From Alphaproteobacteria bacterium (GTDB lineage Bacteria > Pseudomonadota > Alphaproteobacteria > Rs-D84), in NCBI GenBank assembly GCA_017546265.1, contig JAFYXG010000012.1, positions 4,249 to 68,248 of the forward strand: DNA of 64,000 nt, read 5' to 3'. The position numbers and the translations under genes are program-made. The notes below the pieces were generated by a model. It was not told the DNA's origin, did no database searches, and worked only from the letters and a program-made list of their open reading frames with translations. Shown in pieces: positions 36,454-58,420 of this stretch; the first letter of the stretch is position 1, and each line of letters begins with the position of its first letter.

Positions 36454-36530
36454 TGGTGGGTGTTGAGGGACTCAAACCCCCGACCCTCTCGGTGTAAACG
36501 AGATGCTCTAATCAACTGAGCTAAACACCC
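36454..36530 (-). tRNA. tRNA-Val(TAC), CCA encoded
   Basis: GGGTGTT-TA-GCTC-AGTTGATTA-GAGC-A-TCTCG-TTTACAC-CGAGA-GGGTC-GGGGG-TTTGAGT-CCCTC-AACACCC-A-CCA folds as a complete cloverleaf. Confidence 0.97.
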
Positions 36531-50304: not shown

Positions 50305-50338
50305 AAAAAAAATCCCGCCATGTGGCGGGTGTTTTTTT
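50305..50338 (-). terminator. Intrinsic terminator
   Basis: CCCGCCA-TG-TGGCGGG flanked by A and T tracts. Confidence 0.7.
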
Positions 50339-51410
50339 ATTCAATAACAGGTTGTGGTGTTTCAGCCACCGGAACCGTTTCTGTCGTTTCAACCACCACA
50401 GCGGTTTCAGCAGCAGGTACCGACAATTCTGATATCAGTTTAGTTAAACGCTGGGCCGTTTCTGCATCGTTTAACGCAACAGCAATTGTATAAGAAGATT
50501 CCAAATCACTGCGTGCCGCGTCAACATTGCCCATCTGCAAATTTAATGCCGCAGATTTTTCAAAATACCCCATCGCATTGTTTGATAGTGATTCACGTTC
50601 TTCCAGTGTGGGTACACCCTGAATCTGTTCGGAAATTACACGAATCGCAGACGAATAATCATTTATTGCATCTGCATACTGTTGCAGGGCAGTGTATGCC
50701 TCGGCACGTTCCGCATAAACAGATGGATTTACAGAACCTTCTGGACGTGCCAATGAATTTGTGTAATCAGCAATCGCACCCTGCCAATTCTTTAACCACA
50801 AATTTAACTGACCACGTTTGGCATATAAATCACGCATCTGTAAAATCGGACTGGGGTTAGATGTGTTCGCAGCCAATGCATTGTTGATATCGTTCATGGC
50901 CGCATTATAATCTTCCAGGCGTGTGTTCAATAACGAACGGTCATAATACGCAACCGCATTTGCTGGGTCTTTGGCCAAGGCCGCATCAAAGTCAGCCATC
51001 GCTGCACGATAATTGCCAGACTGCATGTATGCTTCGCCACGTAACAAATAGGTATCAACCGATGCCGCACCCGCATCGATAGACGCAGTCAAATCCATTA
51101 TCGCTTCGTCTATATTGCCAGCCAATAATTTTGTTTTGCCACTGTCATAATAATCACCTGATTGCAATAAAACCTCTTCCGTGATTTCAATGTTTGATGA
51201 CGAAGTCTGCATGTTGTGCGAACGACCCAAAATATAAAATGTCGCAGCAATAAAGAATAAAATTATGAACCAATATACATAGATAGACAAAGACCATGGA
51301 TTAAAGCATGGCTTTTGCTTGTTCGCCTTGACTGTTGGCTTACTTGCCACAGGACGCACAGTTGTGCGACTTTTTTTGATTGCAGATTTTTTTGCAGGTG
51401 CTTTTTTCAT
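50337..51410 (-). CDS. Membrane-anchored TPR protein
   Basis: Basic N terminus, one TM, about six TPR repeats (YLLRGEAY, YYDRS, YAKRG, YAERA); start moved to ATG 51410. Confidence 0.85.
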   Translation of the reverse strand: MKKAPAKKSAIKKSRTTVRPVASKPTVKANKQKPCFNPWSLSIYVYWFIILFFIAATFYILGRSHNMQTSSSNIEITEEVLLQSGDYYDSGKTKLLAGNIDEAIMDLTASIDAGAASVDTYLLRGEAYMQSGNYRAAMADFDAALAKDPANAVAYYDRSLLNTRLEDYNAAMNDINNALAANTSNPSPILQMRDLYAKRGQLNLWLKNWQGAIADYTNSLARPEGSVNPSVYAERAEAYTALQQYADAINDYSSAIRVISEQIQGVPTLEERESLSNNAMGYFEKSAALNLQMGNVDAARSDLESSYTIAVALNDAETAQRLTKLISELSVPAAETAVVVETTETVPVAETPQPVIE

Positions 51411-51443
51411 ATAAATCTCCCTTCCTGTTATTATATTCAAATA

Positions 51444-52142
51444 TTAAAAAGATTTTTTTATCTCGTCAATCGTTTTCTGTGGTAATTGTTTAATTTTTCC
51501 AACGGGTAAATTTCCCAACTTTACATTACCATACGCAACACGATGCAATTTGCGTACAGGACACCCAACTGAACGCAATACTATTCTGACTTCGTTCTTT
51601 TTGCCTTCGGTAATTTTTACCAGTAATTGGTTGCCACCTATTTTTATTATTTCCATTGGTGCATAATGCACTCCGTCAACGGTCGCACCAGATCGTGCAA
51701 TATCTAATCCTGAAAAATCGTTCCCGTTTACAGTCGCAACATATGTGCGTACAACACCAGATGATGGTAACGTCATTTTACGTGCAAAATCGCCATCGTT
51801 TGTTAACAACAATAAACCAGTCGTTTTATAATCCAGACGACCTATGTATTTCAGATTCCTGTATGCCATCGGCAGACAATCGTATATCGTTCTGCGCCCC
51901 TGAGGATCTTTCGCTGTCGTCATTGTGTTTATAGGTTTATGATACGCATAAACCAATGTTTCAGATGTAGGACGAACAACCGAACCATCTACGGTTACAA
52001 TATCGCTATCTGATACAAAATACACCGGTGTATCCACAACAACACCATTTACACAAACTCGCCCATTACGTATCATTTCTTCGGCACTGCGGCGTGATGC
52101 AACACCGCTGTCTGCAATATACTTTCCAATCCTAGTCGTCAT
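51444..52142 (-). CDS. RsuA/RluB-family rRNA pseudouridine synthase
   Basis: S4 domain (GVASRR), GRLDYKTTGLLLLTNDG, EGKKNEVR. Confidence 0.92.
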   Translation of the reverse strand: MTTRIGKYIADSGVASRRSAEEMIRNGRVCVNGVVVDTPVYFVSDSDIVTVDGSVVRPTSETLVYAYHKPINTMTTAKDPQGRRTIYDCLPMAYRNLKYIGRLDYKTTGLLLLTNDGDFARKMTLPSSGVVRTYVATVNGNDFSGLDIARSGATVDGVHYAPMEIIKIGGNQLLVKITEGKKNEVRIVLRSVGCPVRKLHRVAYGNVKLGNLPVGKIKQLPQKTIDEIKKSF

Positions 52143-52800
52143 TTTGTAATAAAACCTGTGTTATGGCAACAACTGCAGCAACCTCGGCACGAAGAATCGT
52201 TTTGCCCAATGAAAAACCAACCGCACCAGATGCGTCCAGTGCTGCAAACTCTTGCTCTGAAAAACCGCCCTCGGGGCCTATTAAAATTGTTTCTGTACCC
52301 GATGGCAAACCCGTTGTCCCATGTCCGTGGGTGGCACGCTCGTCAGCAAAAACAACGGTTGATAAATCTAATTCTTCAAATCTGACCGTTGGTAAAATTT
52401 GCGGAACTGTGTTGCGATTTGACTGCTCGGCCGCTTCGATTACTATTTTACGCATGCGTTCCCAATTTATGTAATTGGCATTTGTCCGGTTCGTTATAAC
52501 TGGTACAAAACGTGCAACACCCATCTGAGTCGCCATGTTCAACAAATCATCCGTGCGTTTAATCGGTGAAAACATCAATGTTACGCCATTCGATGGGTCT
52601 GTGTGTGCGGTCTGTTCCCCTATAACCAATCCACGACCGTTTGACGATACGGTCGCCGTATATTCATTGCCATCACCAAATACCAGACAATGGTCTGTTC
52701 GCATGACACGAGTCAGATAATGCAGTACTTCGTTTGATACCGAAATCGTTGATCCTGGAACAATCGTTTCGCCAATAAAAATTCTGGGAACATTTTTCAT
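52132..52800 (-). CDS. rsmE: 16S rRNA m3U1498 methyltransferase
   Basis: HYLTRVMR, EAAEQS.R, IGPEGGFS, LGKTILRAE. Confidence 0.94.
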   Translation of the reverse strand: MKNVPRIFIGETIVPGSTISVSNEVLHYLTRVMRTDHCLVFGDGNEYTATVSSNGRGLVIGEQTAHTDPSNGVTLMFSPIKRTDDLLNMATQMGVARFVPVITNRTNANYINWERMRKIVIEAAEQSNRNTVPQILPTVRFEELDLSTVVFADERATHGHGTTGLPSGTETILIGPEGGFSEQEFAALDASGAVGFSLGKTILRAEVAAVVAITQVLLQNDD

Positions 52801-52855
52801 ATTTTTGTATTTCCGTATTTTTTAATGAACCTTTTTCTGATATAATATAAACACT

Positions 52856-55108
52856 ATGGCAATAAAATTCAACTTTTTATCAGCATCAGGCAAAGGAAAA
52901 GGACTGAACATTTTCCGTTCGTCCGCGTACAAGGAATTTGATCAAACACCCATGGCACGTGAGTTTTGGTCAATACGTTGGACAATCATAGTATGGTTAA
53001 TTGGGGCGTTGATGTTCGCTGCGTCTTTTCCAATTGAACATATATGGCGGTACGGCTGGTCGCCGGCAACAAAACAGTGGTTAAGTATATTTTTATCTAA
53101 CCTGATGACCAGTGGGGGAATTTCCGTTCTGGCAGAAATACCAGCGTGGGCAACACGATGTGTTATGCGACCAGACATCCCATGTATTACTCCACTGTTG
53201 CCAATTATCGGATACTATTTCCTGGCGGATTCTACGATGACAGATGAATTTAACCCGCACAGCAAAGATAAGTTTGATGAAAAGACTTCACGTAAAGCAA
53301 CCGCAGACGATATCAAAAAAATGTCCCAGGACTATAAAAATAAAGAAGGATTGTTCAAGGGATTTATGATGGTGTTAGGGTACTTTAAGGGAAAACCGTT
53401 AATGTTTGATGAATGTTTATCAACATTGTGCGTTGCCCCCCCCGGGACCGGTAAAACCAAGGGTGTTGTTGAGCCAACTATTTTAGAATGTGATAATGTT
53501 TCTATGATTATCAACGACCCAAAACCAGAATTAAAACAGACAACGTCTGGATATCGGTCAACGGTTGGCCCCGTATTCATTATGAACTGGGCCGGTCAGG
53601 ACGACCCAGCACGCGGAATATACTATCCTTCATGGAATCCATTGTCGCCGGGACACGTGCCGTTCAATGCCGAAGAACGCGATTTGTATGTCGATTCTAT
53701 TGCAAATACGCTGATTCCAGACCGTTCCAGCTCGTCCGCCGACCCACACTGGACAATCACAGGCCGTGCAGCACTGACCGGTTTTATCCAATTTATTATT
53801 TCCAAGGTTGAACGGGCCAAGGCAGATGATTATTTCTATGCACGTATTGTCAACGGCACATTTAATGCAGAAGATGCCGCCGTACTGGGGGATTACTATT
53901 TATCCATGACATCTGATCCGAATGCATATGCGGCACACGCATTGTTGCAACGTGGCGAACTGGACGCAACAAACTATGTACACGTTGGCACATGGGAAAA
54001 CATCCCAGACGCATGGCGTGGCCGCGAGGCATCTATGTCCATGATTCTAGACTGGCTGAACGCATCTCAAATTTCTATTGCAGAAGAAATTGAAAATCGC
54101 CGCCGCCAGGGCGACCAGATGGTGATGATGGCCGACCCGCAAAAGGATATGTTTATGAAGTCCGTGGACGAGGCACGCAGATACGCGTATTCCCATCGTG
54201 CAATCCAGGAATTGACCCAATTGGCCAGCACCCCAGACAAAGAACGTGGGTCCATTATGTCAACCGCATTGTCTGGACTGAACATTTTCCGTAATGCAGC
54301 CGTACGGAACAGAACCAGTCATTCTGATTTCCACTTTTCTGACCTGCGTGGTATGTTAGACCCACGCGATGGCAAGGTTAAGCCTGTATCAGTGTATCTG
54401 TCCATTAACATGGTAGATGCACAGGCTTTAAACCCAATTACTGCCATATTTATCGAACTGATGTCTAATTTCCTGTTGGCACATAAGCCGGGTGATATAC
54501 ACCAGGGCAAAGAAATGGGACCGTACCCTGTACTGTTCGCAATTGACGAAATGCCCAAAATGCAAAAGTTACAGGCCGTTATCCAGGGGCCAGATTTGGG
54601 ACGTGGACAGAAAATATCATACCTGATTATCGGGCAAGACCTGCATCAGATTGCAGAAAAATATGGCCAGGATGCCGCAGCAACCATTATATCAACGACC
54701 GCAGCAAAGATAGTTATGCGGCAAAACGACCCTGATACAGCGGAAAGTTTCTCGAAAATGATGGGGCACAAAATGAAAAAGAAAACCGTCAAAGGACCAG
54801 ACGGCAAAGATAAAGAAGAAACAACCGAAGAATTATTGTTTACCCCAATGGATATCATGAAAATGGATCCTGAAAAACAATTGGTTATTATCCAGGGACA
54901 CTATAACCGCCCAATCGAGGCAGATCAGGAAAGATGGTATAAAAACAGCACCGCCGCACAGAAAAAACTGTATGCCAAGGTACAAATGGGCGAAGCACCA
55001 CCATTGCCTGAATTTTTGGTACCATCTCATCACAGGGCACTGGGATATTCGGGTACACCACGAATATTCGACCCAAAAACCAAACAAATAAAAGAACTGG
55101 TATCATAA
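52856..55108 (+). CDS. virD4: Type IV secretion coupling protein VirD4/TraG
   Basis: N-terminal TMs, Walker A APPGTGKT, NDPKPEL, WNPL, DPHW, FSDLR, Walker B FAIDEMP, QDLHQIAEKYG. Confidence 0.9.
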   Translation: MAIKFNFLSASGKGKGLNIFRSSAYKEFDQTPMAREFWSIRWTIIVWLIGALMFAASFPIEHIWRYGWSPATKQWLSIFLSNLMTSGGISVLAEIPAWATRCVMRPDIPCITPLLPIIGYYFLADSTMTDEFNPHSKDKFDEKTSRKATADDIKKMSQDYKNKEGLFKGFMMVLGYFKGKPLMFDECLSTLCVAPPGTGKTKGVVEPTILECDNVSMIINDPKPELKQTTSGYRSTVGPVFIMNWAGQDDPARGIYYPSWNPLSPGHVPFNAEERDLYVDSIANTLIPDRSSSSADPHWTITGRAALTGFIQFIISKVERAKADDYFYARIVNGTFNAEDAAVLGDYYLSMTSDPNAYAAHALLQRGELDATNYVHVGTWENIPDAWRGREASMSMILDWLNASQISIAEEIENRRRQGDQMVMMADPQKDMFMKSVDEARRYAYSHRAIQELTQLASTPDKERGSIMSTALSGLNIFRNAAVRNRTSHSDFHFSDLRGMLDPRDGKVKPVSVYLSINMVDAQALNPITAIFIELMSNFLLAHKPGDIHQGKEMGPYPVLFAIDEMPKMQKLQAVIQGPDLGRGQKISYLIIGQDLHQIAEKYGQDAAATIISTTAAKIVMRQNDPDTAESFSKMMGHKMKKKTVKGPDGKDKEETTEELLFTPMDIMKMDPEKQLVIIQGHYNRPIEADQERWYKNSTAAQKKLYAKVQMGEAPPLPEFLVPSHHRALGYSGTPRIFDPKTKQIKELVS

Positions 55109-55138
55109 AAAACCGCCATTTGGCGGTTGATTTTTTTA
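55107..55138 (+). terminator. Intrinsic terminator after virD4
   Basis: AACCGCCA-TT-TGGCGGTT followed by GATTTTTTT. Confidence 0.75.
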
Positions 55139-55147
55139 TCAAATCAA

Positions 55148-55176
55148 TTGAATTTATACCGTCATTGCGGTATAAT
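55148..55176 (+). promoter_or_regulatory. Near-consensus sigma70 promoter driving the structured RNA
   Basis: TTGAAT(55148)-17 nt-TATAAT(55171); predicted TSS ~55182-55183. Confidence 0.75.
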
Positions 55177-55181
55177 AGTCA

Positions 55182-55392
55182 CGAATCCAAAGGGATTTGG
55201 GTTCGGGCCTTCGAAAAGCCCAGGTGTTTCGGTGCGTTCTGTACCGTAATCCGATGTAATATCGGTGCATTCGCACCGTTATTTTCACCCCAGCGTCTGT
55301 CGGGGTGCCGTTGTAATATATTGAAAGCAACGGGGTCTGAAACACTTGACTTTTCGAACACCCCGACCGCCAATCCCAATGGCGGTTTTTTT
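55182..55392 (+). ncRNA. Structured RNA of unknown class (standalone sRNA, divergent 6S-like RNA, or attenuator leader)
   Basis: Bounded by a promoter and a U-tract terminator; 10-bp GNRA hairpin, ~21-bp long-range closing helix and several internal hairpins; GC-rich relative to other intergenic DNA. Confidence 0.65.
55365..55392 (+). terminator. Intrinsic terminator ending the structured RNA, 28 nt before the next start codon
   Basis: GACCGCCA-ATCCCAA-TGGCGGTT followed by TTTTT. Confidence 0.75.
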
Positions 55393-55420
55393 GATGTCCG
55401 TTTTTTTTGGGGGGATAAAA

Positions 55421-56899
55421 GTGTTATTACGTTTCAACATTAGAAATTCAATCAGAATATGCAGTTTGTTTTTGTGTGGGGCACTGGTTACAAACCATGG
55501 ATGGGCAGCAAAGTGCGAACCAGGCAAGTACTGGGTTGAATGGGCACAACGATGCTATTGGTGTTCGAGTGTTCCTGGACTGTATTGTCCGGGCGATGAC
55601 CAGGCATACGATTGTCCAGATGGAAAATATCCCTTGGATATTGGGGCGACCAGTATAGATGATTGCCTTTGTCCACCAGGTACATATTGGAATGATTGGT
55701 CGATGGGATGTGATACCTGCGAATCTGGGTATTATTGCCCAGGCGATGAAGAAGATTACAGTTGTTATGATGTATCTTGGAGTGGATGGAGTTATACGGA
55801 TTCTGATGCAGGGGCCGCAAGTATTGACGATTGTTACATATCGCTAACTTGTGCAACATGTAATCAAACAGGTTGCCCGACCGGGTATGCCTGTACATAC
55901 CAAAACGCAAGTACTGAGTATAAAATTTATTATAAACAAATACCTTCCTGTCCCACCCCATCCGGCAATTGTGCCATTGCAACGCAGACCTGCAACACAC
56001 CGTGCTCCGCCGTACAAAACAATACCAGTTATGACGGAACCGAGGTTTGCACACGTGAATGCAATATAGAAAATGGAACCTGTTCTTATGTCGGGGCAAC
56101 ACGGTCCTTTACAGATACATGTGCCGGAAAATATACGTCTGATACCTGCCAATCGGCGGGGCAAACCTGTTCGGGATGTTCCCAGTGGACACGAACCCAG
56201 GAATCAGAATGTTCAGGTGGCACAATCGTAATAAATTGCCATGACGGATATACCCCAAATGCCGATAATACCGAATGTGTGGCCAATACCCCAAAATGCG
56301 GGGCCGGACAATATTTGGATGGTACGACTTGTGTGGATTGTCCCGCAAATTACCCGCTGTCAGACGGGGGCGATGTCGGGGCAGATGGCTGTTATAAAAA
56401 TATGGTGCACGCAGGAACACAAAACACATGCAAAAAACCAGAACACAGCGTTTCATATGCATGCGGGGTATGCACACCAGGTTTTTGCATTTATCGAGAT
56501 TATAACGAGATAACAAATGAAACCTGTGTCGCAGACGCATGCGATATGCCCACAATAAATGTCATTTGCGACAATGGGTACTATACAACCGGTGGGACAT
56601 GCGTAGCCTGTACAAACAAGCCCGCCAACAGTTCATATACCGGCAGTGCAACATCCAATGCATGCCCGTGGAAATGCAATGATGGATACAATCAAACCAG
56701 CGATAACACCTGTGTTCAATTGTGCGATTCTGGGATTACACATATCCACCTGCAGATTCCTTTGTATTCGGTGGCACAAACATCGCCGGCGATAAATGTC
56801 AGTGCAAATGGCACAGTATGCTATTCGGGATTGGTACCGGGGGCGGGTGCGGGGTTAAACGTAGACTATAACGGTACAACATATCATGCAACCTGGTGA
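55421..56899 (+). CDS. Secreted, very cysteine-rich protein with CPxGxY/YCPG (GCC2-GCC3/EGF-laminin-like) repeats
   Basis: GTG start behind GGGGGAT gives a signal peptide ending HGWAA; repeats YCPGD...GAxSIDDC, CGAGQY..C..CP, CNDGY. Confidence 0.75.
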   Translation: MLLRFNIRNSIRICSLFLCGALVTNHGWAAKCEPGKYWVEWAQRCYWCSSVPGLYCPGDDQAYDCPDGKYPLDIGATSIDDCLCPPGTYWNDWSMGCDTCESGYYCPGDEEDYSCYDVSWSGWSYTDSDAGAASIDDCYISLTCATCNQTGCPTGYACTYQNASTEYKIYYKQIPSCPTPSGNCAIATQTCNTPCSAVQNNTSYDGTEVCTRECNIENGTCSYVGATRSFTDTCAGKYTSDTCQSAGQTCSGCSQWTRTQESECSGGTIVINCHDGYTPNADNTECVANTPKCGAGQYLDGTTCVDCPANYPLSDGGDVGADGCYKNMVHAGTQNTCKKPEHSVSYACGVCTPGFCIYRDYNEITNETCVADACDMPTINVICDNGYYTTGGTCVACTNKPANSSYTGSATSNACPWKCNDGYNQTSDNTCVQLCDSGITHIHLQIPLYSVAQTSPAINVSANGTVCYSGLVPGAGAGLNVDYNGTTYHATW

Positions 56900-57020
56900 T
56901 GGAGGCATCTTTTTTTGGTGCGGTGCTTTTGTTGTCCCCCACCCCGTTGGGATGGAATTTTACACTATGGAATCATCGCATCAATTCCAGGTAGATAGGA
57001 AGTTTTGATGTTGCGAATAT

Positions 57021-57049
57021 AAAAAAAACCGCCATTTGGCGGTTTTTTT
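57021..57049. terminator. Bidirectional intrinsic terminator
   Basis: AAAAAAAACCGCCA-TT-TGGCGGTTTTTTT. Confidence 0.85.
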
Positions 57050-57596
57050 ATTTCGCAGGTGCGATTATTATCGATTTCGTACGTTCATCAGGCTTTGATT
57101 TTGATTCTAGTGTACCACGGTCACCAATAATTTCCACAATACGGGCAAACAATTCTGGAACAGCATCCTTGCCACGAGCCAATACTTTCTTGTTTCCCTT
57201 GGTCATGACCGATATTTTTACCTTGTTCCCGTCAGATAAAAACTCCAGTGCTTTTCGCATCTTGATGTTCAAATCGTTTTCTTCGATAAAAGGTTTTACC
57301 CAAACCTCTTTCATTTCGATGCTTTTTTGTTTCTTTTTCGCCTCGGACGCACGTTTTTTCTGTTCGTACTTAAATTTACCAAAGTCCATTATCTTGGCAA
57401 TCGGGGTCGCACCGTTCGCGTTTATTTCAACCAAATCCATGTCGGCGTCCATCGCCATCTGTAATGCCTGGGATGTAGGCATAACCCCCAAATTTTGTCC
57501 GTCAGAACTGATTACCTGGACCGATTTCGCAAATATGCGGTTGTTTATACGTGGGCCATTATCACGGCGATTATCACGATTATTTACAGGTTTAAT
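57048..57596 (-). CDS. infC: Translation initiation factor IF-3 (ATT start)
   Basis: PRINNRI, MDLVEI, KIMDFGKFKYE; SD AAGGAG 6 nt before an in-frame ATT at 57596. Confidence 0.93.
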   Translation of the reverse strand: MKPVNNRDNRRDNGPRINNRIFAKSVQVISSDGQNLGVMPTSQALQMAMDADMDLVEINANGATPIAKIMDFGKFKYEQKKRASEAKKKQKSIEMKEVWVKPFIEENDLNIKMRKALEFLSDGNKVKISVMTKGNKKVLARGKDAVPELFARIVEIIGDRGTLESKSKPDERTKSIIIAPAK

Positions 57597-57637
57597 TTTA
57601 TGCTCCTTTTTATTAAACTTGTGCGAATTATTAACTA

Positions 57638-58420
57638 TTATTCGGCACTTTTCAAGATATTTTGCACATTTTGCAGGGCGGTCCATACATCACGCTTGGC
57701 CGCAGGCTTTAATATCAAATAGTTCGGATGAAAAATCGGTACCAGTGTTACGCCACCTGATACACTGACCGGAACGCCATGCGATTTCGCCAAATTTACA
57801 CCCGCCATTTCGGCCGCAGGCAATGTCCCCAATGTCAATATTACACGCGGTTTTAACAATTCTGTGGTCCTGTCAATAAAAGGACGCGTTAAATCCAGTT
57901 CTGTGCGGGTCGGCGTGCGACCGCCAGGTGTACGCCAAAATACCATCGGGATAATAGACACACACATACGTGATAAACCAATCGCCGCCAACATTTTATC
58001 CATCAATTCACCCGCCGCCCCAGATAAAATCGTACCTGTCGCATCATCATCTGAACTGGGAATGTCCGTCAATATCATCAAATCACCATTGCCAACATGT
58101 GGCAGAACAGTATTTGTCGCCCCCCCACGCAATGGATGATTTAATTCACCTATCATGCGTTTCAGCGTTGCCATGTCGGTCGGTCGTGATGCCATGGCTC
58201 GCACCGTATCAACAGAAACCGTCTGAGCCGGTGCAATCGGCGGAACAACAGTCGCAGGACCACGACCTATCTCGGCAATAACGGTTGCAGCCGTCTGACG
58301 CGGCGATTCCACAGGTGCAGATTCCAAAACAGTACGCGGACGCGGTGCAGATATAGGAGTGTCAGACAACTCCCAAACAACACCGGCCAATTCTAAATCA
58401 CGCAAATCACAATCTGACAT
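57638..58420 (-). CDS. Uracil-DNA glycosylase family 4-like protein (degenerate motifs)
   Basis: SGAAGELMDKML, FWRTPGGRTPT, PRVILTLG, IFHPNYL; GEAPG motif and Fe-S cysteines not present. Confidence 0.8.
   Translation of the reverse strand: MSDCDLRDLELAGVVWELSDTPISAPRPRTVLESAPVESPRQTAATVIAEIGRGPATVVPPIAPAQTVSVDTVRAMASRPTDMATLKRMIGELNHPLRGGATNTVLPHVGNGDLMILTDIPSSDDDATGTILSGAAGELMDKMLAAIGLSRMCVSIIPMVFWRTPGGRTPTRTELDLTRPFIDRTTELLKPRVILTLGTLPAAEMAGVNLAKSHGVPVSVSGGVTLVPIFHPNYLILKPAAKRDVWTALQNVQNILKSAE

Follow-up and report, generated by a model that had tools for sequence, protein, structure and literature searches.

On the forward strand of a 64,000-nucleotide (nt) stretch of an Alphaproteobacteria bacterium genome (contig JAFYXG010000012.1; hereafter the window), positions 55148-55392 hold a sigma-70-type promoter, then an RNA of about 210 nt and then an intrinsic terminator, ahead of a gene for a cysteine-rich (Cys-rich) protein. 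This RNA is probably the 5′ leader of the downstream messenger RNA and belongs to a large, apparently undescribed family of cis-acting transcription-attenuation, riboswitch-like RNAs. Leaders of the attenuator or riboswitch-like kind are known; the architecture, the copy number and the regulon of this one are new. An initial annotation, made from the sequence alone, had proposed a new cis-regulatory attenuator here, and the proposal is supported by a covarying switch that overlaps the terminator and by co-oriented genes close behind the copies of the element. The features that this annotation had listed were all confirmed at the coordinates it gave.

A covarying, pseudoknotted RNA

The promoter had been described as TTGAAT and TATAAT 17 nt apart. 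It matches 10/12 consensus positions and is the sole promoter-like site across 54900-55700, which leaves the downstream gene, as had also been claimed, without a clear promoter of its own; a single site of this kind is by itself not beyond chance (1.7 ± 1.4 expected). The −10 box is conserved, with at least 5/6 matches in 59/73 homologs, and ends 6-7 nt upstream of the first base of the 5′-terminal hairpin P1 in 66/73 unique copies, while a −35 box with at least 4/6 matches is found in 49/73 and a spacer of 17 nt in 47/73. From this sequence layout, transcription would start near G55183, the first base of P1.

The 218 nt at 55175-55392 fold at −91.2 kcal/mol, compared with −61.7 ± 4.8 kcal/mol for shuffled sequences (z = −6.1; 0/200 as good). 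The reverse strand folds with equal energy (z = −6.1), so that energy by itself cannot assign the strand. We built a covariance model, R1 (208 positions, 57 nested pairs), from three near-colinear copies, the window copy and two from Candidatus (Ca.) Enterousia sp. records; under it, sense matches reach 215-249 bits, compared with 24-32 bits for their antisense echoes, and several pairs are mainly G-U, in line with the + strand as RNA. The RNA strand is the + strand, because the sense scores far exceed the antisense echoes and G-U pairs are frequent.

Conservation of the fold was counted on 74 matches, 73 of them distinct, aligned to R1 (alignment A5), using a hand-written structure that includes two helices outside the model, AT and P2. 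Standard pairs fill 96.7% of 4311 cells, versus 77.8 ± 0.4% in column shuffles (0/500 reach it; 73 copies), and compensatory, both-side changes occur at 52/61 pairs, versus 32.5 ± 2.7 in shuffles; these shuffle statistics overstate significance, related genomes not being independent, and the nested-helix counts, AT and P2 excepted, lean towards the model, which was fitted to those helices. The stronger argument is the control in which partners were slid by 1-3 columns, whereupon pairing falls to 38-45%, together with the variety of independent pair types seen within single columns.

The fold is branched and pseudoknotted, with a 5′ hairpin, an H-type pseudoknot (PK), a closing helix and optional inner hairpins (Table 1). 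P1, whose GGGA-looped stem had been predicted and recurs in the fold, shows compensatory changes at all 9 pairs, and 97.7% of its cells pair. Within the P2 region, helices 2 and 3 pair in 93.6% and 68.5% of cells, with the variants GGGA/UCCC, GGAC/GUCC and GGGU/ACCC. The two long-range helices of the initial annotation recur, as 55210-18 with 55350-58 and 55221-29 with 55340-48; both belong to the minimum-free-energy fold and covary strongly. The first of them, PK (helix 4), has compensatory changes at 7/8 pairs, up to four Watson-Crick types per position and 94.8% of cells paired; the second, the closing helix P3 (helices 5-6), has them at 8/8 pairs, with all four Watson-Crick types at most positions and 97.6-100% of cells paired. 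P8 (helix 11) shows compensatory changes at 6/6 pairs, with 98.6% of cells paired, and would serve as the tetraloop receptor into which the GNRA loop of P1 docks.

Table 1. Features of the element and of the gene that follows it (window coordinates)
Feature	Position	Strand	Details
Sigma-70-type promoter	55148..55176	+	−35 TTGAAT 55148-53, spacer 17 nt, −10 TATAAT 55171-76
P1, 5′-terminal hairpin	55183..55204	+	GAAUCCAAA[GGGA]UUUGGGUUC; 55183-91 with 55196-204; GNRA-type loop
P2 hairpin	55205..55221	+	GGGC 55205-08 with GCCC 55218-21; loop 55210-17 is the PK 5′ strand
P3, closing helix	55222..55229 with 55340..55347	+	5′ strand with 3′ strand; encloses the inner domain
P4 hairpin	55230..55246	+	CGGUGC-loop-GUACCG; 99.3% of cells pair (helix 7)
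P6 hairpin	55263..55278	+	CGGUGC-AUUC-GCACCG; 96.1% of cells pair (helix 8)
P7, 5′ strand	55286..55291	+	CACCCC; pairs locally with GGGGUG 55302-07; proposed anti-antiterminator
Switching strand	55299..55307	+	GUCGGGGUG; pairs with 55286-91 or 55359-67; proposed antiterminator 5′ strand
P8 hairpin	55308..55333	+	CCGUUG/CAACGG; conserved UAUAU...GAAAG loop
Pseudoknot PK, 3′ strand	55350..55358	+	CUUUUCGAA; pairs with P2 loop UUCGAAAAG (55210-18); in the counted structure 55210-17 with 55351-58
3′ tail	55359..55367	+	CACCCCGAC; distal partner of 55299-307 (helix AT)
Intrinsic terminator	55365..55392	+	8-bp stem 55365-72 with 55380-87, 7-nt loop, U-run to 55392
Spacer	55393..55420	+	28 nt; contains T8 and G6; likely ribosome-binding site at the G-run 55409-14
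Proposed controlled gene	55421..56899	+	492-amino-acid (aa) Cys-rich protein; GTG start; hydrophobic N-terminal signal-like segment

The duplicated modules noticed in the initial annotation do form hairpins, at 55230-46 (P4) and 55263-78 (P6). P4 is missing from short variants, P6 is optional or swapped for other hairpins in other subtypes, and variants of about 150 nt have no inner hairpins at all. A cross-pairing between the modules, the first CGGUGC with the last GCACCG, was suggested by RNAalifold on a MAFFT alignment (A2) that is poor in its middle part; the two local hairpins are preferred because copies with unrelated P6 sequences (L165, L180) lose the cross-pairing. A further candidate, the 5′ UUCGGGG as an additional partner of the C-rich strands, was rejected, as it shows no covariation in GUUGGAG-type variants.

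One copy is a natural deletion derivative (L023:1420-1542), in which the GGGG of P2 is joined to the GGGG of the switching strand and everything from P3 through P7 is gone; promoter, P1, P8, tail, terminator and gene are kept. Such a copy is probably either constitutive or dead.

The same features bear on whether the element is instead a non-regulatory repeat, either like a miniature inverted-repeat transposable element (MITE) or a portable promoter cassette, with inverted repeats that only mimic helices. The element is multicopy and intergenic, carries inverted repeats and a promoter, folds equally well on both strands by energy and has the deletion derivative just described. Copies within a genome, however, are only ~72% identical, and their long arms lack conserved sequence while pairing is kept through all four Watson-Crick types, which fits selection on an RNA rather than recognition by a transposase; target-site duplications were not systematically searched. 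Orientation to the gene is also fixed, G-U pairs and model score are strand-specific, and a distant blastn search with 55183-55392 gave no match in plasmid or phage collections. We regard the repeat explanation as very improbable.

Three segments competing for the terminator

The segment at 55299-307 (GTCGGGGTG) had been assigned two alternative partners, the local CACCCC (55286-91) and the distal CACCCCGAC (55359-67), and both pairings, here P7 and AT, are conserved. The 3′ end of the tail is also the start of the terminator stem, sharing its first 3 nt in the window copy, exactly the overlap first described, and 4 nt in most homologs; the shared sequence is GAC(C). P7, AT and the terminator share strands, so the expression platform has mutually exclusive terminator and antiterminator pairings. 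As in attenuators generally, a conserved structured domain lies in the 5′ leader of the following gene.

The consensus of the switch is (G)GUCGGGGWG, with CCCYGAC(C) upstream (P7) or CW′CCCCGAC(C) in the tail (AT). AT, which is absent from the search model, pairs in 73-80 of 76-80 cells, and at the W/W′ position (pair 124-178) UA is found in 31 sequences, AU in 27, GC in 10 and GU in 7. When the core varies, both partners follow: GUCGGGA is accompanied by UCCCGAC twice, upstream and in the tail, GUCGGGC by GCCCGA- and GCCCGAC, and GUUGGAG by CUCCAAC twice. The P7 strand, the switching strand and the tail covary together, and the sequence conservation of the switch strands may be a simple result of this three-way constraint.

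In the 82 unique copies, duplex energies have medians of −20.0 kcal/mol for AT, −14.0 for P7 and −12.2 for the terminator hairpin, and in 74/82 the P7 duplex beats the average obtained with a shuffled upstream segment by more than 2 kcal/mol. The terminator is itself conserved in the homologs, where its positions pair in 77-81 of 81 cells with covariation at pair 188-200 (CG 47, UA 19, UG 13), and the 10 nt around the model 3′ end hold 7-8 T in 61/73 copies. Simple arithmetic on the median energies suggests that P7 plus the full terminator is comparable to AT plus the terminator stub.

We propose that the leader would be transcribed from its own promoter, beginning at the first base of P1, and that the core would fold into the P1 GNRA hairpin, P2 with PK, the closing P3, zero to two inner hairpins and P8. 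Being a local pairing, P7 would form first, as the G-rich strand emerges. In the putative OFF state P7 would hold, the tail would stay free, the terminator would form and transcription would stop about 28 nt before the gene. In the putative ON state, once P8 has been made together with the 3′ halves of P3 and PK and the core has closed, the tail would emerge adjoining PK, invade P7 from the W-G toehold and form AT, which would tie up the lowest 3-4 nt of the terminator stem while the 3′ half of that stem is still unmade and so permit readthrough into the gene. With two states close in energy, a modest input could tip the switch. The ratio might be set by an effector on the folded core, which could be a protein, a small molecule, an ion or simply the kinetics of folding, and whatever stabilises either P7 or the closed core together with AT would decide which state prevails.

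A small-molecule pocket in the P2/PK/P3/P8 core is possible. More specifically, the family might be a new riboswitch class, in which the double-pseudoknot core senses a small molecule or ion, perhaps one reporting partner contact or supply, and switches host-interface genes together; we hold this only tentatively.

An order-wide family in front of envelope, glycan and methylase genes

By blastn, the window genome (0.96 Mb, 21 contigs, 80% complete) holds three further copies, ~72% identical to the window copy, and matches occur in 19/24 genomes of the same genus, probably Ca. Enterousia of the order Rs-D84. With R1 the count rises to 10 copies in the window genome and, across the genus, to at least ~740 matches in 94/101 genomes, single genomes reaching at least 24 copies. 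In the order, 123/151 genomes have matches, at least ~870 in total (by family 112/121, 2/4, 8/19, 0/1, 0/2 and 0/3), and in the class 7/149 other alphaproteobacterial families do, searched with one genome per family, in genomes of 0.9-3.0 Mb. These class-level homologs keep the layout of promoter, leader, terminator and ribosome-binding site. A scan of genome contigs with a 16-nt pattern returned mostly unrelated G+C-rich genomes, and full elements came only from metagenome-assembled genomes labelled Enterousia, 'Rickettsiales bacterium' or 'Alphaproteobacteria bacterium'.

A crude search for a ribosome-binding site plus an open reading frame (ORF) found a co-oriented ORF after 75/82 unique copies, starting within 40 nt of the model end in 59/70 (median 24.5 nt). 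Of the seven copies without one, five were inspected: three lie at locus ends, one has an ORF 150 nt downstream and one (L164) has opposite-strand ORFs only. Within the window, no second promoter-like site was found between the RNA and the gene, and the 28-nt spacer leaves no room for one.

Pfam assigned a family to 26/75 downstream products and none to the other 49/75. DNA methyltransferases total 7, namely the EcoRI-type adenine methylase (PF13651; 5), HsdM/N6_Mtase (1) and N6_N4_Mtase (1). The other matches include GT2 (3), GT8 (1), Stealth (1), Autotransporter (1), Chlam_PMP repeats (2), the Cys-rich repeats of Ephrin_rec_like (3), Trypsin (1), Ankyrin (1), PLD-like (3) and HTH (1). By our own heuristic, the N-terminal segment is strongly hydrophobic in 51/75 downstream proteins, of which 9 also carry a lipobox-like motif. 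The 492-aa protein of the window matches no Pfam family; related Cys-rich proteins behind other copies match Ephrin_rec_like. Twelve downstream ORFs scanned outside the order include an FkbM methyltransferase, a polysaccharide pyruvyl transferase, an autotransporter, an EcoRI-type methylase, a TRL lipoprotein and a chemoreceptor. No other named gene recurs as often behind the leader as the EcoRI-type adenine methyltransferase (L158, L186, L163, L179, L182, L209; 5/75 in the order, 1/12 outside).

The suggestion that the RNA controls a surface protein thus holds in part. Copies mostly precede genes, nearly always with a co-oriented gene at short distance, yet the gene types vary, and instead of a device for one Cys-rich gene we find an order-wide family in front of many envelope, glycan and DNA-methylase genes.

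The initial annotation had also considered a new class of trans-acting small RNA (sRNA). Under that explanation the terminated transcript of ~205 nt is the functional product, for example as a protein sponge or a base-pairing regulator, and the genes are mere neighbours or served by leak-through. Terminated riboswitch leaders do act in trans in Listeria (SreA/SreB), and with a strong promoter and a strong terminator of their own, short transcripts should accumulate here from 10 to at least 24 loci per genome; L164, moreover, has no co-oriented ORF. Against this stand the co-oriented gene after 75/82 copies, within 40 nt in 59/70 and with no room for a separate promoter, and the conserved competition of P7, AT and terminator, which would be purposeless in a plain sRNA. 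At least 10 divergent paralogs of ~70% identity would be odd for one trans function, and neither Hfq nor CsrA was found in the 80%-complete window genome. Gene coupling and terminator competition therefore place the primary role in cis, and a family of sRNA genes is unlikely by comparison with a cis attenuator.

The regulon also recalls leaders that act by processive antitermination or against Rho, like HK022 put or Bacillus EAR, in which the RNA modifies the polymerase to ignore the terminator and later stops. RfaH/ops serves accessory surface-structure genes in enterobacteria, RfaH/UpxY-type regulons consist of surface, lipopolysaccharide (LPS) and capsule genes, and in put a structured RNA is directly followed by a terminator. 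The set found here (surface proteins, LPS/capsule transferases, accessory genes) resembles such regulons, the structured RNA is likewise followed by a terminator, and the window genome encodes Rho and only one NusG-family gene, with no RfaH-like paralog found at 80% completeness. As in RfaH/ops (JUMPstart) and EAR/put, a signal borne by the leader precedes surface-polysaccharide, adhesin and accessory genes. Those systems, however, act through a NusG paralog or polymerase modification over long operons, whereas the downstream units here are by appearance mostly single genes and the three-way covarying competition with the terminator stem points to local attenuation. There is also no similarity to the EAR and put models of Rfam. 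We consider processive antitermination improbable.

Several observations weigh against attenuation in cis as the function of the leader. A large conserved aptamer is disfavoured, since the inner hairpins, where one would look for a ligand pocket, are optional and short variants of ~150 nt lack them entirely. In the window copy AT covers only 3 nt of the terminator stem, and the left-over 5-bp G+C-rich stem might still terminate; AT would, moreover, have to be sterically compatible with PK and P3. The nested-helix pair counts, AT and P2 excepted, are drawn from an alignment fitted to the same helices. Copy L164 (L164:1501-1698, 142 bits) lacks a co-oriented downstream ORF, its nearest sizeable ORFs lying on the opposite strand, and in the class-level homolog L211 (G281:C157:5558-5743), from a 3.0-Mb G+C-rich alphaproteobacterial genome, neither a terminator hairpin nor a U-run is evident downstream of the tail. 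The lone sequencing run (X1; RNA type guessed, contigs only) yielded one 169-nt contig, 55369-55536, uninformative on starts, ends and level. As a separate observation, L211 keeps P1, PK, P3, P7, AT and P8, and it may use a different expression platform.

Almost nothing is known of gene regulation in Rs-D84. Ca. Enterousia and Rs-D84 are described as uncultured, metabolically dependent gut Alphaproteobacteria with ~1-Mb genomes, thought for Rs-D84 to be obligate symbionts or parasites of other cells (PMC12306168). With copy numbers that reach at least 24 in a genome, this RNA device would be the most prominent regulatory system known in the order, in metabolically dependent gut bacteria with very few other regulators, and the genes it would control are those facing a partner, host or phages. 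If the riboswitch class were real, up to two dozen copies per ~1-Mb genome would switch adhesins, lipoproteins, surface-glycan enzymes and DNA methyltransferases together. For RNA biology the family offers a well-supported candidate for an orphan riboswitch or attenuator, represented by hundreds of natural variants, a clean three-strand switch and an unusual regulon without metabolic genes. A metabolite effector would point to a signal used for partner sensing; without one, the family would exemplify a purely kinetic or protein-driven RNA regulon.

The spacers between terminator and start codon have features of their own. Homopolymers, T8 then G6 in the window and T11 then G8 in L098, with L012 among other loci, occur in 15/70 spacers, and the X1 contig differs from the window by indels located exactly in T-runs. 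The T and G tracts may superimpose slipped-strand, phase-variable control on the RNA switch. In other host-adapted bacteria, surface-protein, surface-glycan-enzyme and DNA-methyltransferase genes are under phase-variation control at the DNA level. Three long spacers of 77-119 nt (L155, L183, L102) carry a further inverted repeat, GGGGTAATA...TTACCCC, just upstream of the ribosome-binding site, possibly an added translational element.

Known RNA families and genomic surroundings

The initial annotation recognised no known RNA class, and at gathering score Rfam 15 indeed places no family on the element, its only match in the whole window being a tRNA gene at 36457-36530 on the − strand. In E-value mode, 55050-55500 gave 12 matches, all sub-threshold, the top one reaching 26.2 bits where its family's gathering score is 53. 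That best match, sRNA-Xcc1 (RF02221), an integron-associated sRNA of beta- and gammaproteobacteria, has E = 0.021 for the 451-nt search and covers only 55299-55375, the 3′ third; the likeness is an outer G/C-rich helix (GUCGGGGUG...CACCCCGAC in the window element) around a hairpin, and the candidate was rejected. No description of the element was found in the literature, the search leaving aside supplementary motif tables of discovery papers.

The third early suggestion, a very divergent 6S RNA, does not survive. The length of ~200 nt and the closing helix are similar, and no 6S RNA turns up in the window genome with the standard model. The model (RF00013), however, gives no match at the locus even at E up to 10, nor genome-wide at E up to 0.01. 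6S is moreover one long irregular hairpin with a central bubble, usually in one or two copies uncoupled to genes, whereas the window element is branched and pseudoknotted, lacks a central open-promoter-like bubble and occurs in 10 gene-coupled copies. We give the 6S explanation almost no credence.

Among riboswitches, cyclic di-GMP-I (GEMM-I) elements share with this family the many copies per genome before surface, adhesion or virulence-type genes and a GNRA tetraloop with a possible receptor contact, which is presumed here. The element nevertheless has no Rfam match to them, and the organism does not appear to make cyclic di-GMP; this molecule is excluded as a self-made signal because GGDEF is found in 0/61 genus genomes (58 of them at least 90% complete) and none was found in the window genome. 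ZTP (pfl motif), fluoride and preQ1 riboswitches close their aptamer by a pseudoknot with the 3′ tail and are of the terminator/antiterminator type. They resemble the element as multicopy 5′ leaders with mutually exclusive helices and a pseudoknot of an internal strand and a 3′ tail shared with the terminator. The element differs in lacking sequence or model similarity, in its third competitor strand, P7, in its variable and optional inner domain and in its genes, which concern envelope, glycans and DNA methylation rather than metabolism or transport.

In trp-type attenuators and T-box leaders, too, the middle one of three successive segments picks an upstream or a downstream partner, the downstream one shared with the terminator. 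The element has no leader peptide and no conserved internal start codon, and its core is more elaborate and pseudoknotted. A T-box leader was rejected: there is no Rfam T-box match and no T-box sequence or specifier loop, and the downstream genes are of the envelope, glycan and methylase kind rather than aminoacyl-tRNA-related.

Upstream of the element lies a virD4-type coupling-protein gene (52856-55108; Pfam T4SS-DNA_transf), separated from the promoter by a bidirectional terminator at 55111-55128. Its neighbours across 50337-58420 are genes for an rsmE-like methyltransferase, a pseudouridine synthase, a TPR protein, infC and a member of the uracil-DNA glycosylase family. Embedded among such housekeeping genes, the virD4-type gene appears to be a chromosomal part of type IV secretion and not to belong to any obvious integrative element. 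Elsewhere in the window genome, leader copies stand in tandem or divergently within 1 kb of each other (C9:2179-3156 and C1:6159-6656; L147/L152 and L150/L153), and, twice in this genome and once in a second one, a short, weaker-scoring leader variant stands before a 172-aa PLD-like gene.

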